The notes beneath the pieces were generated by a model. That model saw only the letters and a program-made list of their open reading frames with translations. It was not told the origin of the DNA and ran no database searches. Both the position numbers and the translations under genes were made by a program. Positions 8,842-62,452 of a stretch of 64,000 bases of DNA are shown in pieces. This DNA is from Candidatus Staskawiczbacteria bacterium RIFCSPHIGHO2_01_FULL_39_25 (GTDB lineage Bacteria > Patescibacteriota > Minisyncoccia > Minisyncoccales > Staskawiczbacteraceae): positions 1,749 to 65,748 of the forward strand of contig MHOO01000004.1 of the NCBI GenBank assembly GCA_001820095.1. The letters are read 5' to 3'. Each line of letters begins with the position of its first letter. Positions within the stretch are counted from its first letter, which is position 1.

Positions 8842-9090
8842 TAGGTAGGGGAATCCCGCGCTGGCTGATTGTGCGATTGAGATGTTTTCCCAGAACTATA
8901 GACCTCTTGCAAAATAAGTTTTGACTGCAAATTGTATATTTCGGCCACAAATTCGCTATAATTTTTTACCGTATCCAGAGGATACGCTAAAAAATTCTAT
9001 CAAATTTGCATCTCAAAATCTTCAATTTTCGTTACAAAACTTATTTTGCAAGATGTCTTATGTTTGGACTACATCCCACTTCTCGCGCAA
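8839..9090 (-). pseudogene. short ORF family 1, copy B, split by a MITE-like insertion and carrying TTG instead of ATG
   Basis: LREKWDVVQT | MITE | FWENISIAQSAS.. aligns codon for codon with copy A. Six changes are synonymous and three are conservative. Confidence 0.45.
8897..9060. mobile_element. MITE-like palindromic element, variant TIR (CTTGCAAAATAAGTTTTG), copy M1
   Basis: Absent from the paralogous sequence at 1346..1351. It shares the core AAATTCGCTATAATTTT-hairpin-AAAATTCTATCAAATTT with the copy at 46142..46317. Confidence 0.6.
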
Positions 9091-9185
9091 ACTATTTACA
9101 CTCTATCATAATTATGGTAGAGTGTTTTTAGTTCCCAGACAACTAATCCTCGTAGGCAGCTATGCCTTAAATAGCAGGAGAGAAA

Positions 9186-9650
9186 ATGAACATGAATATG
9201 TCCGATCTTTGTCTTGCGTTTGCTCGCGAGACGAATCAGGATCTCCCAGAAGCCACAGAACAACTTACTAAACTTGTCCAAAGGATCCTTTTCAGTGAGC
9301 CAGATGATGGCCAGCCTTATACAAGAGATGACCTGGAACTTGCAGAATCCTATCGTCGTCTCGTTGCCGTCAGTGAGGCTTTAACCAAGATGGCGACTGA
9401 AGAAGGCGTTAAGGGTGAAGCAAGTAAATTAGTTTTCGAACTTGGGGTGCCCCATGGTGATTGCAGCGTTTCTGGTCTCGCTCGCACCGCGATTAGTATG
9501 GGTAGCCGAATTATCATGGATAGTCCCTGGATTCGCCTAGGTCAAATTGCTGATGATCTAGAGATCGAGGAGCGTCTAGATGTTCCAGCTGAACTTGTCA
9601 AAAGATATTTTCGATCAGGAGAAAATCTTTCATCTAGGGAAACAAAGTAG
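9186..9650 (+). CDS. hypothetical protein (154 aa), higher-GC orphan
   Basis: SD AGGAGA lies 6 nt upstream. GC is visibly higher than in the core genes. A terminator follows. No recognisable motif. Confidence 0.6.
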   Translation: MNMNMSDLCLAFARETNQDLPEATEQLTKLVQRILFSEPDDGQPYTRDDLELAESYRRLVAVSEALTKMATEEGVKGEASKLVFELGVPHGDCSVSGLARTAISMGSRIIMDSPWIRLGQIADDLEIEERLDVPAELVKRYFRSGENLSSRETK

Positions 9651-9664
9651 GATTCTACTTATTC

Positions 9665-9697
9665 GCCAGTTGCGTCGAGCAGCTGGCTCTTTTTTTA
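9665..9697 (+). terminator. intrinsic terminator
   Basis: CCAGTTG-cgtcgag-CAGCTGG followed by a T-run. Confidence 0.6.
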
Positions 9698-9772
9698 TTT
9701 TTCTAAATCTGGAATATAAATATACTCTTTTTCTTCTTGAATTATGGTTCTAACGTTGTTCACGACGTCGCG
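9695..9772 (-). pseudogene. short ORF family 2, copy C1 (RDVVNNVRTIIQEEKEYIYIPDLEK), start codon replaced by TAG
   Basis: It aligns with copies at 10990..11085 and 11542..11640, with many synonymous differences. The codon preceding CGC is TAG. An internal GTG is a possible start. Confidence 0.4.
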
Positions 9773-9775
9773 CTA

Positions 9776-9803
9776 TTGACTTTTTTAGTAAATATAATAT
9801 AGT
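9776..9803 (+). promoter_or_regulatory. candidate promoter TTGACT-16-TATAGT (module R3)
   Basis: -35 at 9776..9781 and -10 at 9798..9803, immediately right of the TCGCGC core and upstream of 9863..10639. Confidence 0.35.
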
Positions 9804-9862
9804 ATAAGTTGAGTAGGCCCTTTGACAGTTAAATTCACTTTTACCAGAGAAAGGATGTGTGT

Positions 9863-10639
9863 ATGCCAGCACCAGAAAAGGTTTATTTCTTCAATTCAAG
9901 CGAACGAGGCTTGTTTGTTGAAATTTACTTTCCTAAAAGGGCGGCTTACTACGGAGCAATCTTTAATGCTCTACGCAAAGGACATGACGAAAATTTGGTC
10001 AAGGAATACTTGAGAACAAGGGTAAAAGACTTAATCAATGAATTTCAGGCTTTTCCCGATTTGTTCAAGCCAAGCCGCTACATTTCACCCAAGTTTAGCC
10101 GCACCCTGCCCTCCATGGACGAAGCTCTTGGAAGGATTGAAATGTATAAATCTCCTTTCACGGGTTGGTCAACCTACTCCGTTGACGGCGTATGGTTTGA
10201 CGAAAGTAAAACCCCAGTAGAACTCATAGAAGAAGCGACCCAAGTGGTTCGTGTGATGTTTCGCTTTGATAATTCGTTTGCCAAACAAGCAGTTGACGAA
10301 GATTGCTCTGATGTTTTGCGGGCTATTCTCTTCTGGATTATTTCTCAGCATGGTCGTCTCTATGACCATAAGGTATGGGGCAAAGAGGAGCAAGCCCAGT
10401 TTATGGCAAGGCACAAGCCTTGGCCGAAAAAGAAAGAACTCTTTGCTAAAAAACACTACGCTGACATTGCAGTTGAAACGGGCAAATGGTTAGACAATCG
10501 GGAAATATTCATCTTTTGCTACCTTGTCAGGAATTTCTGGAAAAGGGTAGTGAGAGAGGAGATGCGGGAAGATGAAATCTGGGTTACGAGCTTGTTCGAC
10601 TTGGTGTTGAACGTGGTCAAGCCCACCAAACCCGTTTAA
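9863..10639 (+). CDS. hypothetical protein (258 aa), higher-GC orphan
   Basis: SD AAAGGA lies 8 nt upstream of the ATG at 9863; the ORF track starts at 9857. Protein-like composition with no recognisable domain. Confidence 0.6.
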   Translation: MPAPEKVYFFNSSERGLFVEIYFPKRAAYYGAIFNALRKGHDENLVKEYLRTRVKDLINEFQAFPDLFKPSRYISPKFSRTLPSMDEALGRIEMYKSPFTGWSTYSVDGVWFDESKTPVELIEEATQVVRVMFRFDNSFAKQAVDEDCSDVLRAILFWIISQHGRLYDHKVWGKEEQAQFMARHKPWPKKKELFAKKHYADIAVETGKWLDNREIFIFCYLVRNFWKRVVREEMREDEIWVTSLFDLVLNVVKPTKPV

Positions 10640-10674
10640 TTGGGTTTCTAACCCTCTCTGAAAGGAGAAAAACT

Positions 10675-10899
10675 ATGCTTTCCAAAGCAACGACTCAACT
10701 AACTGAGGAAGTGTTTGGGTATTTTGGCGAGGAAGATAAGCAAAAGGCAAAAAAAGAACCTGAAGCTCTTCTAATTTCTCTGCTCTTGGTTCTCAAGAGA
10801 GAGTTGCCCGATGTCTCCTCCATGTTAAGTGATGTTGAAGAAGCTCTCTACGAAGATAATCTCAAAAAAGCACGAGAGAGGCTTGTGCAGAGCAAATAA
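10675..10899 (+). CDS. hypothetical small acidic protein (74 aa)
   Basis: SD AAAGGAG upstream. It follows 9863..10639 after 35 nt, and a terminator follows. Confidence 0.55.
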   Translation: MLSKATTQLTEEVFGYFGEEDKQKAKKEPEALLISLLLVLKRELPDVSSMLSDVEEALYEDNLKKARERLVQSK

Positions 10900-10927
10900 A
10901 AACCCTAAAAAGGGTAAAAAAACAACA

Positions 10928-10964
10928 GACCCCAGTCGTCCTTTGGACTTCTGGGGCTTTTTTA
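10928..10964 (+). terminator. intrinsic terminator
   Basis: CCCCAG-15 nt-CTGGGG followed by CTTTTTTATTT. Confidence 0.65.
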
Positions 10965-10989
10965 TTTGCAAGCGGGAAAATTAGATAAA

Positions 10990-11085
10990 TTATACATTTG
11001 TCTTTTCTGGTATCAAATCTGGGATATAAATATATTCATTTTGGCATTCAATTGCAGTTCTAACATTGTTCACGACGTCGCGCAT
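10990..11085 (-). CDS. short ORF family 2, copy C2 (31 aa, MRDVVNNVRTAIECQNEYIYIPDL...)
   Basis: ATG at 11085..11083 inside the TCGCGCAT core. An AAGGTGA SD-like sequence lies within the R1 hairpin 10 nt upstream. Synonymous pattern against C1 and C3. Confidence 0.4.
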   Translation of the reverse strand: MRDVVNNVRTAIECQNEYIYIPDLIPEKTNV

Positions 11086-11090
11086 TCTTT

Positions 11091-11155
11091 CAAAATCACC
11101 TTTTTAAGGTGGTTTTTGTCGGCCAATTGGCGGATTATTTTTAAAGGGGTATAAT
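11091..11155 (+). promoter_or_regulatory. module R1 copy 2: hairpin (11091..11117) plus TATAAT (11150..11155)
   Basis: Homologous to 1524..1576. It lies upstream of the cupin gene. Confidence 0.45.
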
Positions 11156-11210
11156 AAAAATGCAGATTAGAAAGTCGATAGTTAAAATTAAACTCAAAAA
11201 GTGAAAAATA

Positions 11211-11549
11211 ATGGCAAAATTAGAAAGTAAAAAATTTGATTCTCCAGATGAAACTGTGAACATAGGAAGAGGTAAGGTTGAGGTTATTAGTCTAGGCGGT
11301 TTTAAGGTGAGAAAACTTACTTTGCAACCTGGTTGGAGATGGTCGGAAGATGTAAAACCGATGGCTAAGACTGAAAGTTGCAAAATACCACATCTTAATA
11401 TTCACATTTCTGGTAAACTGGGTGTAAAAATGGATGATGGTACCGAACAAGAATTTGGCTCAGGGGACGTTGCATTATTACCACCAGGCCACGATGGGTG
11501 GGTTGTTGGGAATGAACCAGCGATAATAATAGAACAAACCCCTACATAA
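11211..11549 (+). CDS. cupin domain protein
   Basis: Small beta-barrel pattern with G..W..H and GDVALLPPGHDGWVVGNEP, typical of single-domain cupins. Confidence 0.7.
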   Translation: MAKLESKKFDSPDETVNIGRGKVEVISLGGFKVRKLTLQPGWRWSEDVKPMAKTESCKIPHLNIHISGKLGVKMDDGTEQEFGSGDVALLPPGHDGWVVGNEPAIIIEQTPT

Positions 11550-11640
11550 AATTCAAAATCCCGAAAGTTAAATCTGGCATATAAATACACTCATTCTGTT
11601 GGTGTATAATATTTCTAACGTTGTTGACGACGTCGCGCAT
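11542..11640 (-). CDS. short ORF family 2, copy C3 (32 aa, MRDVVNNVRNIIHQQNECIYMPDL...)
   Basis: ATG at 11640..11638 at the junction with element M copy 2. It overlaps the cupin 3' end by 8 nt. Confidence 0.35.
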   Translation of the reverse strand: MRDVVNNVRNIIHQQNECIYMPDLTFGILNFM

Positions 11641-11778
11641 ATGGAAAAAGACTGTCTACAAGACAGTCTTTTTTCATATATCTGATTGGGATTTGAAGGG
11701 CGCCGAGTTCCTTTGTTGACATTGTGTGAGGCGCCCAGGCCGCGAGTCGAAGCGAGCGGAAATCCCCTCGCTCGCGCA
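11640..11778. mobile_element. 139-nt element M, copy 2, bounded by TCGCGCA (11633..11639 and 11772..11778)
   Basis: Same length as 1379..1517. The central 5 nt of the first hairpin are reverse-complemented (TACAA here, TTGTA in copy 1). Confidence 0.6.
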
Positions 11779-11788
11779 CAATAGTACG

Positions 11789-11852
11789 AACAGATCCTTC
11801 GGGGTCTGTTTTGTTTTGTAAATCTGGCATTTTGCTCTGAATTTGCTATAAT
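11789..11852 (+). promoter_or_regulatory. module R2: terminator hairpin (11789..11815), 12-nt partial L2 repeat (11819..11830), extended -10 TGcTATAAT (11844..11852)
   Basis: CAGATCC-ttcg-GGGTCTG plus a T-run. TAAATCTGGCAT repeats 11569..11580. The TGn+TATAAT lies upstream of 11990..12550. Confidence 0.4.
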
Positions 11853-11989
11853 AAAGCCGACCGAACGGCCTTAGCTGGAAATTGCCCAAGATCCCCAAAT
11901 TTGTTCCTGAAATCTTGATCTGGACCGAAGAGGTGCGTTGGTTGCACTTTTTATCCTGAACTTTAACAAACTTTATGTGAGGGACGCCC

Positions 11990-12550: not shown

Positions 12551-12578
12551 AGCTCGGCGATTCCACCGGGCTTTTTTA
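12551..12578 (+). terminator. intrinsic terminator
   Basis: GCTCGG-cgattcca-CCGGGC followed by TTTTTTATTTT. Confidence 0.6.
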
Positions 12579-12971: not shown

Positions 12972-13212
12972 TAAGATATAGAGTTAAAAGTGGCAAAACA
13001 GAGCTAAATAGGCTCAAAAGTACCTTTCTTTCAAATCATTACCATGAGATTTAACCGATTTTCAGGATTACGATAGTATTCCAGATTCAAGATTCAAAAT
13101 TCTAAATTCATAGCATAGTGATTTGAAAGAAGGGTATGTTGCCCTTTCATTTTAACTCCGAGATTTTCGCGCTTGCCATGGCAGGAGATCTCAAGGAAAA
13201 AGGAGAAATAAC

Positions 13213-14411: not shown

Positions 14412-14437
14412 TGTATACTAATAATTGATTGTGGCCA

Positions 14438-14711
14438 TAGGAGTGCGGGATTTGAACACAATCAAGTTTAGAAGCCAAAAAATGAAATAATTTCAAGGCT
14501 TGCCGAAGGAGGCGTAGCCCATGCGCTACGCCGAGGAGGTATAACGCAGAAATTATTCATTTTTTGGCTTCCCGTAGGGCGGGCGAATTAAGCCAAGTTT
14601 CTTCGTTGCTCGTCGAGAACGTACCGCAGAGGGTACGTTCTCTTCCTCACGCCTTGAATCTTGGCTTAATTCGCTCCGCTAAATTGATTGTATTCGAATC
14701 CCGCACTCCTA
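14438..14711. repeat. nested palindromic element: 28-bp outer stem enclosing three further long hairpins
   Basis: Outer arms 14438..14465 / 14684..14711. Inner stems 14472..14494 / 14549..14570, 14585..14597 / 14660..14672 and 14615..14625 / 14632..14642. Confidence 0.7.
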
Positions 14712-14765
14712 GGGGTGTGGGACGTGAACAGAATCAAGCTGGTTCGTGTTCGACCCCCACACCCC
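14712..14765. repeat. 54-nt 'empty' hairpin paralogous to the outer stem of 14438..14711
   Basis: GGGACGTGAACAGAATCAAG here matches GGGATTTGAACACAATCAAG (14446..14465). Closing helix GGGGTGTGGG / CCCACACCCC. Confidence 0.6.
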
Positions 14766-16031: not shown

Positions 16032-16065
16032 TTGACTTGCCTCGCAGAATTTATTAATCTTTAAT

Positions 16066-16240
16066 TACCTTGAATTACGAAATGCACTATTAAAAAACAG
16101 TTTTCGGGTCTTTTTCCCAAATTCGGGTCGAAAATCCGCAATAATTCCAAAACGTAGCTTGCTACGTTTTGGAATTCTATCACATTTTCGCCTTCCAAAT
16201 TTAGAAAAAATACCGCGAAAGCATTTCGTAATCCAAGGTA
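16066..16240. mobile_element. MITE-like palindromic element, copy M2 (175 bp)
   Basis: 20-bp TIRs TACCTTGAATTACGAAATGC / GCATTTCGTAATCCAAGGTA. The internal second-order palindrome carries the central hairpin CCAAAACGTAGC..GCTACGTTTTGG. Confidence 0.7.
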
Positions 16241-23572: not shown

Positions 23573-23671
23573 ACTAACGAATTCCCACGAATTGACAACG
23601 AATCCCCGCGAATCACGAATTCGCGATTCGTGAAAATTCGTTGAGGTATTCGTGGTAATTCGTCACATAAA
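23573..23671. repeat. word-type spacer: five CGAAT then five ATTCG, an imperfect inverted array
   Basis: CGAAT at 23578, 23588, 23599, 23609 and 23616. ATTCG at 23619, 23626, 23636, 23648 and 23658. The outer spacings are 10-12 nt. Confidence 0.75.
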
Positions 23672-24217: not shown

Positions 24218-24370
24218 TTTAAAAACCCAAATTCAAAATTTCAAATTAGAATCTAGAATCTGGTATCTTGAATCTAGAATAGAATAAAAGAATATTGAAT
24301 GCAAAACTTCACATTCTAAACTCAACATTCAATTCAAGCTACTAGATACTAAATTCAAAATTCATCGTTT
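24218..24370. repeat. word-type spacer built from AAATTCAAAAT / GAATCTAGAAT words
   Basis: Low-complexity, roughly inverted arrangement. Similar word sets occur at 13081..13120 and 31059..31200. Confidence 0.6.
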
Positions 24371-31029: not shown

Positions 31030-31201
31030 ATGTTTTATAAAAAAATCATCTAGGCTTATCAGATGATTATGAATCTTGTATCTTGAAGCTTGAATCTTGA
31101 ATTGAATGGTGCCTCGCCCGTAGGGTTACGGCTGAGGGAATTTGGAATTCTGGATTCCGTATTATATTCCAGATTCAAGATACGAGATTCTAGATTCTCG
31201 T
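31030..31201. repeat. word-type spacer: GAATCTTG / CAAGATTC arms around a GC-rich centre
   Basis: 5' arm GAATCTTGTATCTTGAAGCTTGAATCTTGAAT against 3' arm ATTCCAGATTCAAGATACGAGATTCTAGATTC. The centre is GGTGCCTCGCCCGTAGGG. Confidence 0.6.
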
Positions 31202-32818
31202 TTATCGTAGCTCTTCTTTCTTCTCCTTTATAAAATACCTCCACCGTTCCAGGAATTCTATAAACGAGGAAAATGGCATATCAATCAAGGCGTTAAAGAA
31301 TGCCGTAATGGCATTATATTGCTTCCAGGTATTAGAAAGCCAGCGGCCGGCTCCCGCAATTGGCAATACCAATATATCGGATATAAATCCAAAAAACCCG
31401 CCTTTTTCTTCTTCTATGGTAAGTTCTTGGGATCTCGTTCTTACGGCCATTCCGGTAAATAAAATTAATGCTATAAAAATAAGGTTAATGATAATTGAGG
31501 TTACCGGGAAAGCAAAATAAACAAAGACCCAAATGATAAATCCGAATGAAATGCCAGCTCCTATTAAGTAAATAAGCGATAGTATTAACCTTGTCATTAA
31601 ACTTCTCTTTCTGGCAATTTTTATTTCGTAGGTATCTTTTTTCTCTTTTTTATATACTATTTTTATTGTTTCCATTACTACCAGGCTTAAGTTCTTCTTT
31701 GAAGGAGGCTTTATGGTTATTACCAGAAAAGACATTAACAAGGTAGGTATTGCGACATCTGCAAATAACAAAAGGGTATTTAAATAGCCGCTGAATATTT
31801 TAGCCAAAATAATTTCTAATACTACTAATGATAGTATCTTGGTGATAAAAATTGAAGCGGTAGAATATATTGCTGCTCTGGCAATTTTTGTTTTTAAATC
31901 TGCGAGCCTTTTAAGGTATACGTTCCGGGTATATTCTTCTAAAAGGGCAGGTTCTTGAATTTCTGTTGCTATCTTTTCTATGTTGCCCTTAGATAATATA
32001 TCTCCTAATAGCAAGTATGGGGTATCGTATTTTTCGCAGATGGCATAAAATTTTTTGCCAAGCGGGTGCGCTATATTATATTCAATACCATTCAGCATCT
32101 TATACATATTTTGGGAAATATGAGAAAGCTCTTGGTCTGAAGGATTATCCCATTCAGGATGCTTATACTTTATAAGGTTATAACTTATAATCGGCACATC
32201 AAGCTTAAAAAGCGCTTGTTGCACGGCGATATAAATTTGAATATCTTTTTCTTCTTTTTTTAATACGCCTCTCGTATACACATTTTCATTAACTTTAATG
32301 CGTTCTTGCATTTGCAAAAACATGTAATCAATAAGGGCCATTTCTTTTATGGAAGGGGCTAAGGTTTCTTCAATTTCACAGGCAGCAATTTCCAAAAGAC
32401 GGTTGTAAAAGTTTAATCCGGCTTTGCCGCTTATATTTTCCGGGCTGTTTTTTAATATAACAATGTACTTAGAAAGTATTTTTTGGACATCGGTGATTTT
32501 TGACTCTTCTATTTTATCATTGGGGAAATACCCTCCCCGGATACACTCTAAAACCAACGGTTCAGCCATATTTTCTATTGAAACATTATTGATCTCTAAA
32601 TCTAAGAATCTTCTTTTCAGTTTTCGTATAATTGCCGCTCTGCGCATTAAGTGCTCTTCTTTCCAGTCAATGATGGTTCTTATTTGTTCATAAAAAGCCG
32701 CAACTTTTGAAGCGACTTCATCTACGTGTATCGTTGATACACCTTCTTGTAGCTTTAGAGAATCTTGCCACAGGTTAAATTTTGATATTAAGTTTTTTGT
32801 TTCCTGTGATAATTCCAT
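31202..32818 (-). CDS. hypothetical membrane protein (soluble N-domain of about 300 aa plus 5-6 C-terminal TM helices)
   Basis: Long intact ORF with hydrophobic helices from about residue 310. No recognisable motif. Confidence 0.6.
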   Translation of the reverse strand: MELSQETKNLISKFNLWQDSLKLQEGVSTIHVDEVASKVAAFYEQIRTIIDWKEEHLMRRAAIIRKLKRRFLDLEINNVSIENMAEPLVLECIRGGYFPNDKIEESKITDVQKILSKYIVILKNSPENISGKAGLNFYNRLLEIAACEIEETLAPSIKEMALIDYMFLQMQERIKVNENVYTRGVLKKEEKDIQIYIAVQQALFKLDVPIISYNLIKYKHPEWDNPSDQELSHISQNMYKMLNGIEYNIAHPLGKKFYAICEKYDTPYLLLGDILSKGNIEKIATEIQEPALLEEYTRNVYLKRLADLKTKIARAAIYSTASIFITKILSLVVLEIILAKIFSGYLNTLLLFADVAIPTLLMSFLVITIKPPSKKNLSLVVMETIKIVYKKEKKDTYEIKIARKRSLMTRLILSLIYLIGAGISFGFIIWVFVYFAFPVTSIIINLIFIALILFTGMAVRTRSQELTIEEEKGGFFGFISDILVLPIAGAGRWLSNTWKQYNAITAFFNALIDMPFSSFIEFLERWRYFIKEKKEELR

Positions 32819-34557: not shown

Positions 34558-34710
34558 GTAAATTTGAGTTTAATTTGTATTAAAATAGCTTACCATTTTG
34601 ATAAGCCAGCGTAAACTATTGACAAAGTATAAATATCAATGCTTTTTTATTGACTTGATTTTATTCGTGATTAGTGGAAATTCGTTTAGCAATTCGTGAA
34701 AATTCGTTTT
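34558..34710. repeat. word-type spacer with ATTCGT words
   Basis: TTATTCGTGATTAGTGGAAATTCGTTTAGCAATTCGTGAAAATTCGTTTTT. Same vocabulary as 23573..23671 and 37893..37945. Confidence 0.6.
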
Positions 34711-38017: not shown

Positions 38018-38097
38018 TTACCTTGAATTACGAAATGCTTTCATGGGAAAAGACCCGAAACTCGTTTTTTCAAGGTGCATTTCGTAATTCAAAGTAA
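38018..38097. mobile_element. MITE-like element, short copy M3 (80 bp)
   Basis: TIRs TTACCTTGAATTACGAAATGC / GCATTTCGTAATTCAAAGTAA. Internal GAAAAGACCCGAAA is the reverse complement of TTTCGGGTCTTTTC in the long copies. Flanks are TTTAG|..|TTAG. Confidence 0.7.
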
Positions 38098-39201: not shown

Positions 39202-42200
39202 ATGCTAAACTCTCCGTTTAAAAAATTCCTTTTCGTAAGCATTATAAGCGTACTGGCATTTTTTAATGCTGATTTAGCGTATGCGGCTTGTACAGCGGTG
39301 CCGACCATCACCAGTATTTCTCCATCGTCTAAAAATGCCGGAGATGCAACCTTTACCTTAACGGTCAACGGCACTAATTTTCTCAATAGCTCAAAAGTAA
39401 GGTTCAACGGCTCTGACAAGACCACTACCTATGTGTCTGCCACCCAACTGACTGCCGCTATTCCTTCATCAGATGTTTCCAGCGGGGGATCATATTCTGT
39501 TTCGGTGTTTAATCAGCCATCTTGTCGGGTTGTTACCGACAAGGAACCGTGGTCAATTATCATCTCACAAGACAGCAATTATCTTTATGTAGTTAATAAT
39601 GGCGATAATACCCTGCAAAAATTTAATACGTCTGATCTAAACCAAACAGTACCCCATGTTACTACAGATAACTATCCTCAATCGGTAGCTGTTTCGCATG
39701 ACGGTAAATATATCTATATAGTTAATGAAACCAATGAAACTCTTCAGAAATTTGATGCTGCCAATTTAAATTTATTGGCAAGCGCCACAACAGGTAAAAG
39801 TCCTCGATCTGTCGCTATTGCTCCTGATGGCAATTATGTATATGTTGCCAATTATACCAATAAAAAGGTCCAACAATTTTATACCCCGAATCTTAGCCTT
39901 TCAGAAAGTATTAATGCCGACGGCAATCCTACCGCGATAACTATTTCTCCCGACGGCAATTATTTATATATTGCTAGTTCTAATAAAAATAATATCCAAA
40001 AATTCAGTATTCCTAATTTGAATTTATTGCAGACTACGGCGCTTCTTGATGACTATGTACGGTCTCTTGTAGTTGCCCCCGACGGAAATTATGTATATGC
40101 GGTTGATTATTTCAACTTGAAAAAATTCAATGCCACAAACCTTAGTTTAGTAAAGAGTTCTAGCGGGGGAAGCCAATCGGATCCCGGCTATTCCATATCA
40201 GTATCTCCCGACGGCAATTATCTATATACTATTAACCCTATTACACCATCTATCAACAAATTTAGCGTTTCTGATTTAGGCTTAATTCTTAGTAATAATT
40301 TAGCCAGTCCTTATATATCGCCTCATTCAATTGCTATTTCTGCTGACGGAAATTTTATTTACGTTCTTTTTCTTAGCAAGGGAGTTACTAATAATCATCT
40401 TTTAATAAAAATTGATACTTCTACGTTAGCTTTTGAATCTGATGGAGGGAGTTCTAATGCCCAAACATTCACGGTTAATAATCCTCTCCCAACTACCACC
40501 TCAATCTCTCCAACCTCAAAAACTGCCGGAGAGCCGGATTTTACTCTCACCTTAAACGGCACTAATTTTATTTCAACATCAGTTATTTACCTTGGCAGCC
40601 TTGGATTAACGACTACGTATGTATCTGCCACCCAGCTAACTGCATCACTGCCAGTGCCTCAAGAAGGAACATATTCCATTACGGTGGTTAATCCAACCCC
40701 CGGCGGAGGCACCTCAAATGGACAAACGTTTACGGTAAATGCAGCTGACAATCCTGCGCCAACCACTACGAGCATTTCACCTGTGTCAAAGAACGTCGGA
40801 GACACGGCATTTACCCTCACCGTCAATGGCACTAATTTTATAGATGCCTCTGTAATAAAATTCAACGATTCAAACAGAACTACCACCTATATTAATTCTA
40901 CCAAAATAAGAACTACCATACCTGTCTCCGACCTTGCCACCGCAGGAACCTTTACTATCACGGTATTCAACCCAACCCCCGGCGGGGGAACCTCCAATGG
41001 GCAGACGCTTACGGTTAATAACCCGGTTCCTACTACCACAAGCATTTCACCATCATCAAAAATTATAGGGGATCCAGGATTTACTTTAACCGTAAATGGC
41101 ACTAAATTTGTTTCAACGTCCACTATTTATTTTGATAGCCTAGGGCTGGCTACTACGTATGTCTCTGCGACGCAATTAACTGCTGATATATCAACCCTGC
41201 CAGCTTTGGGAACCTATTCTATTACCGTGGTAAATCCCGCGCCGGGAGGAGGCACTTCAAATGCCCAAACATTCACGGTCAACAACCCTTTGCCGACTAC
41301 CACCTCAATCTCGCCTACATCAAAAAATGCAGGCGACACAAGCTTTACCCTCACCGTCAATGGCACTAATTTTATTTCAACATCTAAAGTAAGGTTTAGC
41401 GGCTCTGATAGAACTACTACCTATGTGTCTGCCACCCAGCTTACCGCTACCATTCCTGCTTCAGACCTTGCGACCGGTGGCACATTCAATATCACCGTTT
41501 TTAACCCCACTCCCGGCGGGGGAACCTCCAATGGGCAGACGTTTACGGTTAATAACCCAGTTCCAACTACTACAAGTATTTCACCGAATTCGGCAACGCA
41601 AAACGACCCCAGTTTTACCCTCACCGTCAATGGCACTAATTTTGTTGCTGCATCTAAGGTAAGGTTCAACGGTTCTGACCGAACTACTACCTATATCTCT
41701 GCAACCCAGCTTACCGCTACCATTCCTGCTTCAGATCTTACGAGCGCAGGAACTTTCACCATCACGGTATTCAACTTAACCCCCGGGGGAGGGACTTCCA
41801 ATGGACAGACATTCACGGTTGTTGAAGCAAACCCAACGGCGCCAACTACTACCAGTATTTCTCCGACATCAAAAACAACCGGAAGCCCGGCTTTCACGCT
41901 TACCGTCAATGGTACTGGTTTTATCCCTTCATCCAAAGTTCAGTTTAATCTTTCAGATAGAACAACAACGTTTGTTTCCCCGGTTCAATTGACAGCCGCT
42001 ATACCTGCATCAGATTTGACGACGGGAGGAATATATAGGATTACCGTGGATAATGGAATCGGAGGATTATCAAACGCCCAGTCATTCTTTGTTAATAATC
42101 CGGTGCCGGTAACTATAAATATTTTGCCAAGTTCGGCGTTTGTAAACGGTCCAAGTTTTGTCTTAACGGTCAACGGTTCTAATTTTGTATCTTCTTCCAA

Positions 42201-43359
42201 GGTCAGGTTTAACGAATCAGATAGGACTACCACATTTGTCTCTGCCAGCCAGCTTACTGCTTCTATTCCGTCATCCGACCTTGAAACTGCAGGAACGTAT
42301 CCTATTACGGTATTTAATCCAACTCCTGCCGGAGGAATATCTAATTCCCAAAACTTCACGGTTGTTCCGGGGGCAAATCCGCTGCCCACTACCATCAGCA
42401 TTTCTCCAAATTCGGCAACCGTAGGCGATCCTGGTTTTACCCTTACGGTCAATGGCACTAATTTTATATCTACGTCTACCATTTACTTTGAAAGTCTAGG
42501 GCTGGCAACCACCTATATTTCTTCAACCCAGTTAACCACATTCATATCATCAACCCCCGGCGCGGGAACTTATTCTGTAACCGTGGTAAACCCCGCGCCC
42601 GGCGGAGGCACCTCTAATGCCCAAACATTTACCGTCAACGATGCTGATACCGAAGGCCCGACGATAAGCGATTTAGCGGTGTCCAGCGATTATTGCCCCA
42701 TTGTGCCCGCTACGGGAATTGCTTACATATCTTGGACGTATAATAATAGCAATGGCAGATACGAAAATCAATTCCAAATGCAAATAGATGATGATCCTGA
42801 TTTCAGTTCTCCTGAAGTCAATAGAACATTTTCTAATCTTTCCAATCCTCCGGGGAGCGTAAACCAGCAATCGGTTTTTATTGTTACGGGGTTTGAACCA
42901 GATTCCTTAGTTTATGGTTACACCTATTACGGGCGCGCAAAGGTATGGGAAACTGATCCTGATACCGGAGGCCCCGGCGCCGATTCTGGTTGGGTATATA
43001 ATACCGGATCTGCTCCGGGCTCGCCCTATGCTACGCCGCCGCATCCTGGCCCATATGCTTCATTTACTTTCTCTCCAAGCAATCCGGCTCCGGGCAATGC
43101 CGTATCATTTGATAATAATTCCACGTGCTATGATTTTAGCGATCCTGTTGATTGCCAATCATATCTTTGGGATTTTGGTGATGGCGGTTCAAGTACTCAA
43201 GAAAATCCTACTCACGTCTATAATACCAATGGATCGTTTAATGTGGATTTAACCGCTTCTGATGAATTGGGGAGCTGCCAAACCAATAAAACGGTTCCGG
43301 TAAGCGCTTCAAGCAATAAGAAATTGCCTCAATTCAAAGAAGTGTCTCCATTGGAATAG
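39202..43359 (+). CDS. giant secreted/surface protein: signal peptide, 9 IPT/TIG-like repeats, YVTN-type beta-propeller, C-terminal PKD-like domain
   Basis: FTLTVNGTNF...TTTYVSATQLTA...NPTPGGGTSN.QTFTV occurs nine times. (S/A)PDGNY(V/L)Y(V/I) blades span 39540..40440. WDFGDGGSS..HVY..G.F.V lies near the C-terminus. Confidence 0.85.
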   Translation: MLNSPFKKFLFVSIISVLAFFNADLAYAACTAVPTITSISPSSKNAGDATFTLTVNGTNFLNSSKVRFNGSDKTTTYVSATQLTAAIPSSDVSSGGSYSVSVFNQPSCRVVTDKEPWSIIISQDSNYLYVVNNGDNTLQKFNTSDLNQTVPHVTTDNYPQSVAVSHDGKYIYIVNETNETLQKFDAANLNLLASATTGKSPRSVAIAPDGNYVYVANYTNKKVQQFYTPNLSLSESINADGNPTAITISPDGNYLYIASSNKNNIQKFSIPNLNLLQTTALLDDYVRSLVVAPDGNYVYAVDYFNLKKFNATNLSLVKSSSGGSQSDPGYSISVSPDGNYLYTINPITPSINKFSVSDLGLILSNNLASPYISPHSIAISADGNFIYVLFLSKGVTNNHLLIKIDTSTLAFESDGGSSNAQTFTVNNPLPTTTSISPTSKTAGEPDFTLTLNGTNFISTSVIYLGSLGLTTTYVSATQLTASLPVPQEGTYSITVVNPTPGGGTSNGQTFTVNAADNPAPTTTSISPVSKNVGDTAFTLTVNGTNFIDASVIKFNDSNRTTTYINSTKIRTTIPVSDLATAGTFTITVFNPTPGGGTSNGQTLTVNNPVPTTTSISPSSKIIGDPGFTLTVNGTKFVSTSTIYFDSLGLATTYVSATQLTADISTLPALGTYSITVVNPAPGGGTSNAQTFTVNNPLPTTTSISPTSKNAGDTSFTLTVNGTNFISTSKVRFSGSDRTTTYVSATQLTATIPASDLATGGTFNITVFNPTPGGGTSNGQTFTVNNPVPTTTSISPNSATQNDPSFTLTVNGTNFVAASKVRFNGSDRTTTYISATQLTATIPASDLTSAGTFTITVFNLTPGGGTSNGQTFTVVEANPTAPTTTSISPTSKTTGSPAFTLTVNGTGFIPSSKVQFNLSDRTTTFVSPVQLTAAIPASDLTTGGIYRITVDNGIGGLSNAQSFFVNNPVPVTINILPSSAFVNGPSFVLTVNGSNFVSSSKVRFNESDRTTTFVSASQLTASIPSSDLETAGTYPITVFNPTPAGGISNSQNFTVVPGANPLPTTISISPNSATVGDPGFTLTVNGTNFISTSTIYFESLGLATTYISSTQLTTFISSTPGAGTYSVTVVNPAPGGGTSNAQTFTVNDADTEGPTISDLAVSSDYCPIVPATGIAYISWTYNNSNGRYENQFQMQIDDDPDFSSPEVNRTFSNLSNPPGSVNQQSVFIVTGFEPDSLVYGYTYYGRAKVWETDPDTGGPGADSGWVYNTGSAPGSPYATPPHPGPYASFTFSPSNPAPGNAVSFDNNSTCYDFSDPVDCQSYLWDFGDGGSSTQENPTHVYNTNGSFNVDLTASDELGSCQTNKTVPVSASSNKKLPQFKEVSPLE

Positions 43360-43472: not shown

Positions 43473-43543
43473 CAATTGACCGTTGACTATTGACAATGGA
43501 TTTTTAAGTCAAATGTCAAATGTCGCATGTCAAATGTCAGATA
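43473..43543. repeat. word-type spacer: CAATTGAC words then the GTCAAAT heptamer tandem
   Basis: GTCAAAT GTCAAAT GTCGCAT GTCAAAT GTCAGAT at 43506..43540. Confidence 0.7.
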
Positions 43544-43828
43544 ATGGCAGTTCCAAGACATAAACACACAAGGTCAAGCGTAGGACAGCGCAGGATGCAT
43601 ATTTTTATCAAGCCGGCTTCTTTAACCGTCTGCAAAAAATGCAATAGGGCAGTCAGGCCTCACACGGTATGCCGCAACTGCGGATATTATAAAGGCCAGG
43701 AATTTATCAATGTGCTAGGCAAGCTTACAAAAAAGGAGAAAAAGCTAAGGGAAAAAGAGATGCAAAAGGCGGAAAAAGAGCAGAAAAAAACTGCGCCAGC
43801 AACCATGGAAGAACTCTCTAAAAAATAA
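43544..43828 (+). CDS. rpmF: 50S ribosomal protein L32 with a K/E-rich C-terminal extension
   Basis: MAVPRHKHTRSSVGQRR and C..C....PH..C..CG. ATG at 43544 preferred. Confidence 0.9.
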   Translation: MAVPRHKHTRSSVGQRRMHIFIKPASLTVCKKCNRAVRPHTVCRNCGYYKGQEFINVLGKLTKKEKKLREKEMQKAEKEQKKTAPATMEELSKK

Positions 43829-43909
43829 CAATTGACAATTAACCATTGACAATTGACAACGATATCGTTTTTTGTCAAATGTCAAATGTCAATGGTCAAA
43901 TGTTGAAGC
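43829..43909. repeat. word-type spacer forming an imperfect long hairpin with a terminator centre
   Basis: ATTGACA-type words, then AACGATATCGTT plus a T-run, then GTCAAAT heptamers. The same design recurs at 50337..50418. Confidence 0.7.
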
Positions 43910-44335
43910 ATGGCTTCACGGCACTTATCACGTTCAATCGTCATGCAATCGCTTTATGAGTGGGACTTTTACGGCAAGAAAGAAAACTCTTTACAGGCAA
44001 TTACTGAAAGGAATATTAGGGATTTCGGCCCTGGACTAGAGGATGTAAAATTTGTCTATGAACTAATTGAGGGCATTGTAAAGCATTTAAAAGAGATTGA
44101 TAATATCATTGAAAAGGCGGCTCCCGAATGGCCAATTTCCCAGATTCCCTTGATTGATAGAAATGTGTTGCGGATAGGCCTGTACGAACTTTTATATAGC
44201 AACAAAGAAGAAGTTCCGCCCAAGGTTGCCATCAATGAAGCAATTGAGTTGGCAAAAAATTTTTCAGGGCAAACTTCTGGAAAATTTGTGAATGGAGTGC
44301 TGGGAACCGTGTTTAAACAACTAGAAAACAAATAG
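43910..44335 (+). CDS. nusB: transcription antitermination factor NusB
   Basis: [29 protein letters not shown] and NEAIELAK. Confidence 0.9.
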
Positions 44336-46090: not shown

Positions 46091-46141
46091 TAAGGACATG
46101 CAAACAGATCTATTGATTATGCATAATTTGTGTTATATAAT

Positions 46142-46317
46142 ATCTTTGAATTACGAAATGCCCATTTAAAACGTTTTTTCGGGTCTTTTCCCAGAATTTG
46201 GGCTATAAATTCGCTATAATTTTCAGGCGGACGCGTTGCGTAAGCCTGAAAATTCTATCAAATTTCTATCTCCAAATTCTGGAAAAATACCGCGAAAGCA
46301 TTTCGTAAATCAAAGAT
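46142..46317. mobile_element. MITE-like palindromic element, copy M4 (176 bp)
   Basis: TIRs ATCTTTGAATTACGAAATGC / GCATTTCGTAAATCAAAGAT. Core AAATTCGCTATAATTTT-CAGGCGGACGCGTTGCGTAAGCCTG-AAAATTCTATCAAATTT. Confidence 0.7.
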
Positions 46318-46421: not shown

Positions 46422-46632
46422 GGGCTCATAGTTCAGTGGTAGAACGCTGTCTTGCACAGCTTTTATGGGGGGCCCGTAGTTCAGTGGTAGAACGCTGTCC
46501 TGATAAGACAGAGGTCAAAGGTCCGATTCCTTTCGGGCCCACCATAAAAGCTGGAAAATTAACATTTAGAAAAATAAACAGAAAATTTTCCTAAGACAGA
46601 GGTCGAAGGTCCGATTCCTTCTGAGCCCACCA
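46422..46632 (+). tRNA. interrupted tRNA: 5' half 46422..46456 and 3' half 46593..46629 plus CCA, with a 136-nt intervening sequence in the anticodon loop (anticodon GCA/Cys most parsimonious, ambiguous)
   Basis: Acceptor GGGCTCA/TGAGCCC is 7/7 paired. The D arm and anticodon stem CTGTC/GACAG match the inner tRNA. T arm GAAGG-TCCGATT-CCTTC. The leader/trailer helix CATAACTTTGGT/ACCAAAGTTATG is 12 bp. Confidence 0.55.
46470..46544 (+). tRNA. tRNA-Ile(GAU)-like, 72 nt plus encoded CCA, nested inside the interrupted tRNA
   Basis: GGGCCCG-TA-GTTC-AGTGGTA-GAAC-G-CTGTC-CTGATAA-GACAG-AGGTC-AAAGG-TCCGATT-CCTTT-CGGGCCC-A-CCA. The T loop is atypical (C at position 55). Confidence 0.7.
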
Positions 46633-50336: not shown

Positions 50337-50418
50337 CATTTTACAATTAACAATTGACAATTAACCGTACGTCAAATAGGTCAAATGTTAAAGGTCAAAT
50401 GTCAAATGTTGCATAGTT
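50337..50418. repeat. word-type spacer: CAATTGACAATT words then GTCAAAT heptamers
   Basis: TTACAATTAACAATTGACAATTAACC ... GTCAAATAGGTCAAATGTTAAAGGTCAAATGTCAAATG. Confidence 0.7.
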
Positions 50419-50976
50419 ATGTGGTTAAGGTATATTATTATAACTTTACTTTTTTTTATTGCGGCGCTTATGCAAGCAAGCTTCGTGCCTTACTTTGGCA
50501 TTAAGGGGATAATGCCAAATGTTGTCTTTGCCCTCTTTTTTCTTTTGATTTTTTTGAAGAAACCATATGCATATTATTATCAGCAGAGTAATTATTTGCT
50601 CTATAATAGCCTGCTAAGCTATGAGGGGCTTTTCATAGTCATAGTAGCCGGATTTTTTTTAGATATTTTCTCCTCTTCTTACTTTGGGTTATCGTTGCTT
50701 TCATTATTAATGGTATATTTTATCGTCAAAACACTAGTATATTTTCTAAGAGAGCAGCAAAACCGGTATATGGTTTTCTATTTTCTACTGATATTTCCAT
50801 GCGCTTTTTTTGTCCATACTATTTTTTTGCAATCGTTTTCCGGTCCGATTACCTTCAACAGTATTCTTTTGTTTGAATTTTTGTACACCCTCGTAGTTGC
50901 CTGCACAGTTTTTTATGGGTATAAAGGGTACATTGAGTTAATCAAACAAGATAGGCAGCTTAGACTATTTGATTAA
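50419..50976 (+). CDS. mreD: MreD-like polytopic membrane protein
   Basis: Five TM helices, positioned between mreC and the PBP2 gene. Sequence itself uninformative. Confidence 0.55.
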   Translation: MWLRYIIITLLFFIAALMQASFVPYFGIKGIMPNVVFALFFLLIFLKKPYAYYYQQSNYLLYNSLLSYEGLFIVIVAGFFLDIFSSSYFGLSLLSLLMVYFIVKTLVYFLREQQNRYMVFYFLLIFPCAFFVHTIFLQSFSGPITFNSILLFEFLYTLVVACTVFYGYKGYIELIKQDRQLRLFD

Positions 50977-56121: not shown

Positions 56122-56137
56122 GTATATTAATTGGCTA

Positions 56138-56158
56138 ATTCGCGCGAATAGGTAAATA
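56138..56158. promoter_or_regulatory. operator-like site 1: ATTCGCGCGAATAGGTAAATA upstream of the ArsR-family gene
   Basis: Palindromic core ATTCGCGCGAAT. The right half is identical to the 28-bp palindrome at 56451..56478. Confidence 0.45.
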
Positions 56159-56167
56159 AAAATAACT

Positions 56168-56434: not shown

Positions 56435-56450
56435 AATTAATAAGATATCT

Positions 56451-56478
56451 ATTTACCTATTCGCGCGAATAGGTAAAT
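56451..56478. promoter_or_regulatory. operator-like site 2: perfect 28-bp palindrome ATTTACCTATTCGCGCGAATAGGTAAAT
   Basis: It lies between the arsR-like stop and the serS ATG, 13 nt upstream of the ATG. No T-run, so it is unlikely to be a simple terminator. Confidence 0.45.
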
Positions 56479-56490
56479 ATAAATAAAATT

Positions 56491-60133: not shown

Positions 60134-61371
60134 ATACATTTAAGCCAATTTCTATTTCTTTGTCTCCTAATGTCCAGAAAGATGATGTATTTTTAGCATT
60201 AAGACTGCTGTTTCAACCTTGGAAATGGAAGCGCGGCTTGGCGGTTAAAAACTTAGAGGATGAATTTAAGCAATACCTAGGCGTGAAATACGCCTTCTCT
60301 TTTAATAGCGGGAGATCAAGTCTTTTTGCCATTTTGAAATCGCTGAATTTACCTGAACAGAGCAAGGTTTTACTGCAGGCGTTTACTTGCAATGCGGTGC
60401 CAAATCCTATTTTGTGGGCAAACATGAATCCGACCTATGTTGATTGTAGCAATGATTTCAATATTAATGTTGGGGATTTGCAAAAAAAGATTGCTGCCGA
60501 TACAAAAATTTTAGTGCTTCAGCATACGTTCGGCTTGCCGGCAAATATAGACGAGGTAAATCTTATTATGCGACAGAATGGCGGGATAGTAGTTGAAGAT
60601 TGCGCCCATGCATTGGGGGCAGAGTACAAAGGCCATAAGCTAGGGACCTATGGCGCAGCCGGATTTTTCAGCTTTTCAAGAGATAAGGTTATATCTTCGG
60701 TATATGGCGGAATGGCAGTTACCAATGATGATCTGCTGGGCAAAAAACTGGAAAAACTGCAGAAAGAATTTGGCTGCCCATCATATTTTTGGATATTCCA
60801 GCAGATATTACACCCAGTATTTTTGCATTTTTTTATTTTACCGCTTTATAATTTTCTTGATTTGGGAAAATTATTTTTAATCCTTTCTCAATGGGCGCAT
60901 CTTCTATCTAAAGCAGTAAGCTGGAAAGAAAAAAGGGGATTAAAGCCAGATTATTTTCCAAAAGTTTTTCCAAACGCTTTGGCTATGATGGCTCAGAACC
61001 AATTTAAGAAGTTAGAGAAGTTTAATGAGCACCGCAAAGAAATAGCAGAATTTTATTATCAAGAATTAAAAGATACGCAATTTATTTTGCCGAAGAGAGA
61101 AAATAACATTTTTTTGCGGTTTGCCATACGGCATCCAAAAGCCCATGACATTATCTATGATGCCTGGCATAAGGAAAATATATTGCTAGGGGACTGGTAC
61201 ACAACGCCCATTGCGCCCGACGACACCAAGTTACCAGAAATGAAATATACGCCAGGGAGCTGCAAAAACGCGGAATTGTTAACAAAAGAAACATTAAATC
61301 TGCCAACGCATATTAATATTTCATTAGAAGACGCAAAAAGAATTGTTGATTTTTTAAAAAGATGGAAGTAA
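60130..61371 (+). CDS. DegT/DnrJ/EryC1/StrS-family aminotransferase-like protein
   Basis: FNSGRSSLFAIL, DCAHALGAEYKG and FSFSRDKVIS (Lys region). ATG at 60130 overlaps the murF stop. Confidence 0.7.
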   Translation: MNTFKPISISLSPNVQKDDVFLALRLLFQPWKWKRGLAVKNLEDEFKQYLGVKYAFSFNSGRSSLFAILKSLNLPEQSKVLLQAFTCNAVPNPILWANMNPTYVDCSNDFNINVGDLQKKIAADTKILVLQHTFGLPANIDEVNLIMRQNGGIVVEDCAHALGAEYKGHKLGTYGAAGFFSFSRDKVISSVYGGMAVTNDDLLGKKLEKLQKEFGCPSYFWIFQQILHPVFLHFFILPLYNFLDLGKLFLILSQWAHLLSKAVSWKEKRGLKPDYFPKVFPNALAMMAQNQFKKLEKFNEHRKEIAEFYYQELKDTQFILPKRENNIFLRFAIRHPKAHDIIYDAWHKENILLGDWYTTPIAPDDTKLPEMKYTPGSCKNAELLTKETLNLPTHINISLEDAKRIVDFLKRWK

Positions 61372-62393
61372 GAGAAATTGGCGATAAAAAAATATGGGAG
61401 GATTTTCTTTTGCCGTGCACGCAGAAAACATTTCTCCAATCCTGGAATTGGGGCAATTTTCATATTTCACTGGGAAACAAGATATGGAGGTTGGGAATTT
61501 ATGAAAATAACTCTTTGATTGCGGTGGCGCTGGTGATCAAAATTTTTGCCAAAAGGGGATCTTTTTTGCTGGTTCCGCATGGCCCGGTTGTCATGGAACA
61601 TGGAATATGGAACATGGAACAAATCCTAAAGACCTTGCTAAATTCATTACAAGAATTAGCGAAACAAGAAAAAGTGGATTTTATAAGGATAAGCCCTATT
61701 TGGGAAAGAACTCCAGAAAACATCGTTTGTTTTAAACGACTGGGGTTTAGGACAGCTCCCTTGCACTACCATCCCGAGTCCAGCTGGAAGCTGAATATTG
61801 GAGCTGAAGAAAATGTGCTGTTTGACCAAATGAGAAAAACTACCAGATATTTGCTGCGGCAAGCCCAAAAAGATGCAAATGTTGAGATAGTTAAAAGCAC
61901 GAGCATAGAAGACATGAAAATTTTCTATGATATACACCAAGAGGTGGTAAAGGTGCAAAAGTTTGTGCCATTTTCATTAGACTACCTAACTAAAGAATTA
62001 TTAGCTTTTTTGCCTGATGCCCAAATTGCTATTTTCTTTGCCAAATATAATGGAGAAATTATTGCGGGAGCCTACGAAATTTTTTGGTCAGGTATCGGAT
62101 TTTACCACCATGCCGCTCTTTTGCCCAAGTATAAAAAAATTCCCGTGTCGTATTTGTTGCAGTGGGAGGCTATAAAAGAAGCTAAAAAAAGAGGGTGCAT
62201 CCTGTATGACTTTTGGGGGTACGCCGATCCGGTTAAAAACCCAACGCATCCATACGCCGGGCCGACGTTATTTAAAATGGGGTTTGGGGGCTATAAGGCA
62301 GAATACGTGAAAACCCAGGATTTGGTGATTTCTCAAAAATATTGGATAAATTATACTATAGAAACAATCAGGAAAATTAAAAGGGGCTTGTAA
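61362..62393 (+). CDS. FemAB-family peptidyltransferase (peptidoglycan interpeptide bridge formation)
   Basis: FLQSWNWGNF N-terminus and a GNAT-like duplicated fold, with a length and motifs typical of FemX/FemAB. Confidence 0.75.
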   Translation: MEVREIGDKKIWEDFLLPCTQKTFLQSWNWGNFHISLGNKIWRLGIYENNSLIAVALVIKIFAKRGSFLLVPHGPVVMEHGIWNMEQILKTLLNSLQELAKQEKVDFIRISPIWERTPENIVCFKRLGFRTAPLHYHPESSWKLNIGAEENVLFDQMRKTTRYLLRQAQKDANVEIVKSTSIEDMKIFYDIHQEVVKVQKFVPFSLDYLTKELLAFLPDAQIAIFFAKYNGEIIAGAYEIFWSGIGFYHHAALLPKYKKIPVSYLLQWEAIKEAKKRGCILYDFWGYADPVKNPTHPYAGPTLFKMGFGGYKAEYVKTQDLVISQKYWINYTIETIRKIKRGL

Positions 62394-62452
62394 ACTTTGA
62401 ATTACAAAATGCTTTCATGGTATTTTTATTGGGCATTTCGTAATTCAAAGTT
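62393..62452. mobile_element. MITE-like element, minimal copy M5 (60 bp)
   Basis: TIRs AACTTTGAATTACAAAATGC / GCATTTCGTAATTCAAAGTT. Flanks are GTAA|..|GTAA. Confidence 0.65.

Follow-up and report, generated by a model that had tools for sequence, protein, structure and literature searches.

The 64,000-nt stretch of DNA analyzed here (the window, whose coordinates are used throughout) belongs to contig MHOO01000004.1 of Candidatus Staskawiczbacteria, a lineage of the candidate phyla radiation (CPR). It carries five short repeats, 58–174 bp long and devoid of an internal open reading frame (ORF), which are bounded by terminal inverted repeats of 19–24 nt with 0–1 mismatch. These repeats are very probably non-autonomous DNA transposons, that is, miniature inverted-repeat transposable elements (MITEs), of two families. 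The features on which this interpretation builds are the following.

16067–16239, plus strand: family 1 MITE, full-length, 173 bp, with ends ACCTTGAATTACGAAATGC and GCATTTCGTAATCCAAGGT
46143–46316, plus strand: family 1 MITE, full-length, 174 bp, with termini TCT...AGA
38020–38095, minus strand: family 1 MITE, internal-deletion derivative of 76 bp, left arm plus right end
62394–62451, minus strand: family 1 MITE, internal-deletion derivative of 58 bp, model positions ~1–29 plus 146–173
8900–9058, plus strand: family 2 MITE, 159 bp, with ends AGACCTCTTGCAAAATAAG and CTTATTTTGCAAGATGTCT
8839–9090, minus strand: small ORF split by the family 2 MITE, reading (L)REKWDVVQT, a stop inside the element, then FWENISIAQSASAGFPYL and a stop
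1266–1379, minus strand: intact paralogue of the small ORF, 37 aa, the uninterrupted reference site
16032–16060, plus strand: promoter-like TTGACT-N17-TAATCT, read by eye and scoring under the threshold of the scan tool

A first-pass annotation had grouped the five repeats into a single MITE-like family. Their MITE nature and shared core hold, but they divide into two families, the fifth copy having ends of its own and a different parent. Searching the window for the 16-mer TTGAATTACGAAATGC with at most one mismatch yielded 8 matches, which form four inverted pairs (16070/16236, 38023/38092, 46146/46313 and 62397/62448), and none of 100 dinucleotide-preserving shuffles of the window reached that number. 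Together with direct reading of their anatomy, this confirms the five repeats and the near-perfect terminal inverted repeats that four of them were said to have in common. We set the family 1 boundaries from an alignment of 15 full-length copies of ~173 nt including their flanks, which defines the 19-nt ends as AC(C/T)TTGAATTACGAAATGC ... GCATTTCGTAATTCAA(A/G)GT and shifts the initially proposed boundaries, correctly located otherwise, by 1–3 nt. Iterative nhmmer searches with family 1 retrieved 25 full-length copies and many partial ones.

The two short copies, 38020–38095 and 62394–62451, match only the outer positions of the model, on the opposite strand, and are therefore internal-deletion derivatives in reverse orientation, as had been suspected. 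The profile match of 38020–38095 covers model positions ~1–52 and 150–173 in reverse orientation, and a repeat within its arm is 86% complementary to 16062–16117; a comparable 76-bp form of the family 1 MITE is found at another locus (L018). What had been described as an inverted interior in this copy is merely the reverse orientation of the deletion derivative. The family 2 copy has its own 24-nt inverted ends, at 8900–8923 and 9035–9058, with the family end sequence AGACCTCT(T/C)GCAAAATAAG, and has only its central ~84 nt in common with family 1 (its middle 82 nt are 73% identical to 46196–46277).

Clean target duplications flank two of the five window copies: TGTAA, at 62389–62393 and 62452–62456, around the 58-bp copy and TAT, at 8897–8899 and 9059–9061, around the family 2 copy. 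The other three are imperfect, as at 16067–16239, where TAATT faces AAATA. Short direct flanks had been noted as TTAG, GTAA and AAT; the duplications are real, in the form of the 5-bp TGTAA and the 3-bp TAT, but TTAG requires the element end to be shifted by 2 nt. The TAT duplication and the uninterrupted paralogue establish that the fifth copy is an insertion, as first claimed: the paralogous site at 1341–1360 reads CCCAGAAC-CAC-GTTTGGA and the interrupted one CCCAGAAC-TAT[element]TAT-GTTTGGA. The small ORF looks real because, by our own reading, the nucleotide differences between its split and intact versions are mostly synonymous. Removing the element and one TAT leaves TAG where the paralogue reads TGG, so that the split copy may have been inactive even before the element arrived.

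The window copies lie 0–6 nt past promoter-like −10 boxes. The copy at 16067–16239 starts 6 nt past the promoter-like sequence at 16032–16060, ahead of the ribosome-binding site and 41 nt upstream of the ATG of a metallophosphoesterase (Pfam Metallophos) gene. The copy at 46143–46316 is directly 3′ of a promoter-like TTGATT-17-TATAAT (46113–46141), upstream of a tRNA cluster, and the copy at 62394–62451 immediately follows the stop codon of a FemAB-family gene.

We next turn to the autonomous partners of both families, which the earlier reading had proposed to look for and which were found in each case (L075 and L124–L131 for family 1; L157, L183 and L169 for family 2). At L075 (409–1405), family 1 ends stand 997 nt apart around a single ORF of 277 aa, which passes the NCBIfam NF033520 (IS982 family) cut-off marginally (133.4 bits against 130) and matches Pfam DDE_Tnp_1_3 at 9.5e-31. 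A protein search returned 2296 homologues of this transposase, most of them on ~1-kb contigs. One homologue (P0005), 78% identical to the L075 ORF, occurs on at least 8 contigs (L124–L131) as the one transposase ORF, of 268 aa, in an element of 1003–1004 bp (998 bp in one contig) with ends ACCTTGAATTACGAAATGC...GCATTTCGTAATTCAAGGT. Seven of the eight contigs have the exact 16-mer at both ends and the eighth has one mismatch, and the flanks differ among contigs; several of these contigs come from samples of the ENA series that yielded the window's own contigs, and others are ANAN16-1 scaffolds. A homologue of 56% identity (P0086) has diverged ends, CCGAATTACGAAATGC.

The family 2 end, found at 81 loci in a metagenome scan, bounds a 1099-bp element at L157 (21–1119) with ATA duplicated on either side; its 319-aa product has the Pfam domains DDE_Tnp_4 (1.1e-23) and HTH_Tnp_4. 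This protein falls under the NCBIfam cut-offs for IS5 (76.9 bits against 140 for NF033581; 41.8 against 110 for NF033580), and we therefore call it only IS5-like/DDE_Tnp_4. Relatives of this parent are found at L183 (87% identical) and at L169 (36% identical, with a TTA duplication).

Target duplications were also counted across metagenome-assembled genomes (MAGs) of Patescibacteria. Among family 1 end pairs with at most 2 mismatches and less than 420 nt apart (n = 61), 18 have a perfect 5-bp direct repeat directly outside the ends, compared with 3 of 305 offset controls. A further 13 pairs have a 4-bp repeat by eye. Examples include TGACA, AGACT, AACTT, AAGTT and ATATT, and short family 1 copies lacking the core are flanked by target duplications too. 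Family 2 end pairs have a perfect 3-bp duplication in 32 of 53 cases, mostly TAT/ATA.

CPR (Patescibacteria) genomes are small and commonly regarded as poor in mobile DNA. Contigs of Candidatus Staskawiczbacteria bacterium RIFCSPLOWO2_01 (GCA_001822005.1, MHPD01) match the window with 100% identity, further matches are contigs of JGI and ENA groundwater assemblies, and the genes of the window have ~70–75% DNA identity to other Patescibacteria MAGs. The host is therefore a CPR bacterium, and a cyanobacterial host with Nezha-like MITEs, which the short tandem repeats had suggested, was rejected. When species-representative genomes were scanned for the 16-mer, at least 118 loci were returned, and we estimate that lone matches in non-CPR genomes are at about chance level. 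Among the matches listed, paired inverted ones are concentrated in Patescibacteria MAGs. The checks of copy number and flanking duplications suggested at the outset favor the mobile-element reading, with duplications far above chance. The lineages with paired family 1 ends comprise Staskawiczbacteria, Nealsonbacteria, Campbellbacteria, Kerfeldbacteria, Kuenenbacteria and Vogelbacteria (ends ACCTTGAATTACGAAATGC), and further paired matches are labeled Paceibacteria, Parcubacteria GW2011, several "Patescibacteria group" and, in some MAGs, Saccharibacteria. Many matches lie 33–52 nt from contig ends, the signature of an assembly-breaking repeat. Viral contigs contained 35 single exact matches to the family 1 end but neither MITE pairs nor a transposase; two distant end pairs in viral contigs look like chance and were set aside.

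Sites in other genomes are occupied, empty or nested in ways that speak to mobility. At L011, a family 1 copy flanked by an AAGTT duplication is inserted among the final codons of a gene, the element end providing the stop codon, and the window orthologue of this gene is uninterrupted. At L057, a family 1 copy separates secE from nusG, where the window has none. Upstream of the Metallophos gene, four genomes (the window, L253, L255 and L256) have in common a promoter-like TTGAC(T/A)-N17-TA(A/C)T(C/G)T, with leaders that resemble one another, and no element is present there in L255 and L256, whose proteins are 56% and 54% identical, respectively. These empty sites are at the level of genes and promoters; for family 1, none was found that is exact to the nucleotide, the flanking protein of the nearest relative being only 61% identical, and a comparison of the region upstream of dnaE with L189 gave no clean alignment. 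Two nested arrangements were observed: at L099, the central loop of a family 1 copy houses a member of a third family (ends AGATGGTTGCAAAAGTC), and the family 2 element at L181 includes half an arm of family 1. Copies are mostly at non-orthologous positions, with empty sites and nesting, as expected from a mobile element and not from copies fixed at orthologous positions, the alternative that the first-pass annotation had considered.

All these elements are predicted to form rods. The RNA of 46143–46316 folds at −69.4 kcal/mol (z −9.8) and that of 16067–16239 at −60.4 kcal/mol (z −9.2), both as rod hairpins, the family 2 copy folds as DNA at −35.3 kcal/mol (z −9.6), and z-scores over the elements folded range from about −9 to −14. 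In the 15-copy alignment, 96% of cells pair and both sides have changed in 32 of 61 pairs; none of 500 shuffles reaches the observed covariation score, which collapses in slid registers. The rod changes comprise 94 double changes against ~11 G-U cells, nearly all changes being strictly Watson–Crick, and we read this pattern as palindromy kept at the DNA level in master-copy lineages, not as proof of an RNA function.

A core of ~90 nt recurs in families 1, 2 and 3, made of AAATT(C/T)GC(T/A)ATAATTTT, a CGTAGC-type hairpin and then AAAATTCTATCAAATTT. All 15 family 1 copies have the same GC-ATAATT and AATTCTATC, and three mismatches between the arms are conserved. On each strand, a −10-like box faces the hairpin (TATAAT, GCTATAAT; TGaTAGAAT, TGATAGAAT); no −35 element is present, and a sigma-70 scan detected no full promoter within the cores. 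The first-pass annotation had suggested that copies could seed promoters from the TATAAT box, an idea that is not supported in the form proposed. The core is oriented with the flanking genes in 13 cases and against them in 9, that is, without bias. Promoter-like sites 0–11 nt outside the family 1 ends are enriched, with a match in 19 of 36 flanks, an enrichment that a preference for AT-rich targets could equally yield. We considered the core ATCAA as a site for IHF and rejected it, the CAA part not being invariant; to our knowledge, it is doubtful that CPR bacteria have IHF.

In other CPR MAGs, family 1 ends flank many unrelated interiors, many of them without the core. Interior classes of 106, 112 and 119–126 nt were distinguished, as well as classes of 124–172 nt with TGTCATTCC...GGAATC modules. 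Family 1-end MITEs at L051, L052, L092, L070, L112 and other loci have interiors made of TGTCATTCCCGCGCAGGCGGGAATC-type palindromes, whose ATTCCC-N8-GGGAAT pattern recalls, we presume, the dRS3 repeats of Neisseria.

MITEs occupy entire intergenic spaces at L025, L072 and L116. The ORF at 354–1295 of L025 was considered as an orthologue of ftsQ and rejected, as it is not ftsQ. At L202, a truncated family 2 MITE (1369–1445; left end, arm and GCTATAAT box) fills the space between femAB and ftsQ. This half element ends with GCTATAATTTTGCAGCTT right before the ATG of the ftsQ orthologue, and GCTATAAT lies 12 nt upstream of that ATG. The femAB–ftsQ space of the window holds a short family 1 copy instead.

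What is seen directly is the anatomy of the repeats, autonomous elements with the same ends, duplicated targets, empty sites and nested copies, and these support the MITE interpretation given at the outset. On this interpretation, the four family 1 copies, whose 19-nt terminal inverted repeats are those of an IS982-family insertion sequence, would have been moved in trans, now or formerly, by an IS982-type DDE transposase that makes 4–5 bp duplications in AT-rich intergenic DNA, and the two short copies are versions of the ~173-bp form with internal deletions. The family 2 copy, with the ends of a 1.1-kb IS5-like DDE_Tnp_4 element, would have been inserted with 3-bp TAT/ATA duplications. Each element is a long imperfect palindrome, and several copies, given their position between a promoter and the next gene, probably end up in 5′ leaders as transcribed rod-like hairpins. 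Mobilization in trans, current activity and any effect on neighboring genes are what we infer from these observations.

Several results weigh against this interpretation. As the earlier reading had noted, the 64-kb window contains no transposase (tblastn); the flanks of the contigs with parent elements do not match the window, and neither parent could be placed in the window's genome. The family 1 MITE and its IS982-type parent have only ~19 nt in common, so that the interiors are not deletion derivatives of the parents. Of the four family 1 copies in the window, only one is flanked by a clean target duplication. Four other contigs compared, which overlap the window at 7120–28985, all hold both copies of that stretch, and there is thus no sign of recent movement there. 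Numerous double changes preserve the pairing of the rods, and the core varies no more than the ends do, both of which hint at constraints beyond simple selfish spread. Finally, L253, which encodes a 61%-identical Metallophos protein, has a MITE (2787–2959) exactly 6 nt past the −10 box, as in the window. This element has the variant ends ACCTCAAATTACGAAATGA, belongs to another subfamily and is in the opposite orientation to the window's, which suggests that the transcription start is a hot spot for insertion or, alternatively, that one element has replaced another.

A rival explanation is that the repeats are former MITEs now kept for a host function, with the core acting as a portable promoter or as an RNA-stability or processing module, or the rod acting as a 5′-leader hairpin. 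Such a role is compatible with an origin as MITEs, and we regard it as possible, if doubtful. It would account for a core common to three families that differ in their ends and transposases, for GC-ATAATT and AATTCTATC remaining invariant with three conserved mismatches while the other rod pairs covary, for the position of the window copies just past −10 boxes along with the promoter-like matches in 19 of 36 flanks, and for the intergenic spaces filled at L025, L072 and L116 and the placement of GCTATAATTTTGCAGCTT before the ftsQ-orthologue start codon at L202. However, the cores lack a −35 element and score as no full promoter, they have no preferred orientation relative to genes, and core-less short copies have duplicated their targets just as well, many family 1-end MITEs being without a core. 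The L099 and L181 chimeras further indicate that the core can spread by nesting or recombination without selection, an AT-rich target preference may mimic the promoter enrichment, and strict Watson–Crick changes with few G-U intermediates fit DNA-level palindromy rather than selection on RNA. Nesting and recombination explain the spread of the core, not its invariance, and the core may have a function.

A broader proposal is that CPR bacteria harbor a modular MITE population in which the ~90-nt core is a functional cargo of at least three families moved by different transposases, with elements landing preferentially at transcription starts, where they would serve as portable promoters or leaders that rewire expression. 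We consider this unlikely, somewhat more so than a host function for the elements. We assume that these tiny genomes have few regulators; a core with a proven function would exemplify mobile regulatory DNA in minimal genomes.

It is very improbable that the repeats are instead a fixed, immobile family of conserved structured RNAs, be they noncoding RNA genes or cis-regulatory elements. The strong predicted rods, the compensatory changes in 32 of 61 pairs and the occupation of the same Metallophos-upstream site in a distant relative would suit such RNAs. But the target duplications, empty sites, nesting and same-end autonomous elements denote mobility, the copies occur in either orientation and among unrelated neighbors, and the element at the shared site in L253 is of a different subfamily and opposite orientation. 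Moreover, a search of Rfam 15 at gathering scores detected only tRNA in the window, and a permissive search of two copies returned only weak hairpins of miRNA models far below threshold. Least probable of all are REP/BIME-type palindromes that owe their spread to recombination or to a RAYT-like (IS200/IS605-related) enzyme and resemble insertion-sequence ends only by chance: the repeats are indeed palindromic, intergenic and multi-copy, but their 19-nt identity to both ends of DDE-transposase elements in at least 8 independent contigs and duplications of fixed length, typical of DDE transposition, argue otherwise, and no RAYT-type gene adjoins the loci of the parent-transposase homologues, although no search aimed at RAYT was made.

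We therefore retain MITEs of two families, presumably mobilized by IS982-type and IS5-like transposases, as the interpretation of the five repeats. Family 1 ends mark MITEs in many Parcubacteria-type lineages, and their frequent position at contig ends helps explain fragmented assemblies. The ends and the two parent elements may be used as markers for strain tracking, and the parent transposases are candidate genetic tools for a group that is hard to manipulate.

The window has further repeats and structured features, which we record here. Downstream of the copy at 46143–46316, a second, paralogous tRNA-like gene (46422–46632) is interrupted by a 136-nt insert that contains a tRNA-Ile(GAT) gene (46470–46544). 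The 5′ part of the split gene (46422–46451) and its 3′ part (46588–46632), when joined in silico, give a clean ARAGORN tRNA-Arg(CCT), the break falling between anticodon-stem position 31 and loop position 32, and both the inner and the outer tRNA have a long complementary leader and trailer. At 14435–14468 and 14681–14714, inverted 34-nt arms resembling the T-arm and acceptor 3′ ends of a tRNA (GGATTCGAATCCCGCACTCC) enclose a GC-rich structured stretch of 212 nt, and ARAGORN makes no tRNA call at 14435–14714.

A second repeat family in the first 12 kb (9704–9773, 11014–11083 and 11569–11638; 1378–1418/11639–11679; 1511–1552/11078–11119) consists of the starts of paralogous small ORFs on the minus strand (MRDVVNNVRTIIQEEKEYIYIPDL...) and of 41-nt near-perfect palindromes that abut the start codons. 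At 56123–56163 and 56445–56485, a palindrome of ~30 nt, TATTTACCTATTCGCGCGAATAGGTAAATA, stands on either side of a small helix-turn-helix-like ORF, MSIEREKLVKIFKALGNERRFLIIKHL..., and we read this arrangement as a putative regulator with operators on both sides rather than a MITE. Imperfect tandem repeats of ~6–8 nt occupy intergenic positions (13077–13109, 23620–23660, 24243–24365, 31069–31203, 34664–34708, 43502–43548, 43823–43914 and 50345–50420), with motifs such as TTCAAGA, GTCAAAT, CGAATTC and ATTGACA that recur at distant sites. The 1385-aa ORF at 39202–43359 is made of ~270-nt tandem repeats that are 63–82% identical, and it therefore encodes a repeat-domain protein.

Among known systems, the Correia elements (CREE/NEMIS) of Neisseria, for which promoter-like boxes and a central protein-binding region have been reported, resemble the window copies as palindromic MITEs of ~100–160 bp that occur in long and internally deleted forms, lie in intergenic regions and are co-transcribed as hairpins. 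Their ends and TA duplication differ from the ends and the 5-bp and 3-bp duplications of the window copies, which are accordingly not Correia elements, the analogy being functional only; we know of no active parent linked to Correia elements in the same way. IS5-family/PIF-Harbinger-like DDE_Tnp_4 elements are accompanied by MITEs with 3-bp duplications (Tourist-like). The family 2 parent agrees with them in its DDE_Tnp_4 and HTH_Tnp_4 domains and its A/T-only 3-bp duplications. It differs in scoring below the NCBIfam IS5 cut-offs (76.9 against 140), which marks it as a divergent lineage, and in its bacterial (CPR) host.

The IS982 family comprises elements of ~1 kb with 5′-AC inverted repeats, variable direct repeats and the end logo AC(N)6T(N)5TT, and the review that defines these features does not mention MITEs (PMC7335449). 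The family 1 parent agrees in its ~1 kb length, single DDE transposase ORF, 5′-AC ends and short direct repeats of variable length; AC and T9 of its ends fit the logo, but positions 15–16 are AA and not TT. The closest parallel comes from a Cardinium endosymbiont, in which MITECca01/02 derive from ISCca4, an IS982-family element (PMC9769881). As in the window, these are short non-coding elements in many copies, with ends matching an IS982-family element, and are presumed to be mobilized in trans. They differ in their Bacteroidota endosymbiont host, in their end sequence and in retaining sub-terminal sequence of the parent. No description of MITEs in CPR bacteria was found in the searchable paper collection; this kind of element is itself known, but MITEs derived from IS982-type and IS5-like/DDE_Tnp_4 elements may be new for CPR bacteria. 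Their main interest lies in their host group and modular make-up: unlike MITECca01/02, family 1 shares only its ~19-nt ends with the parent, and the same ends enclose many unrelated interiors.

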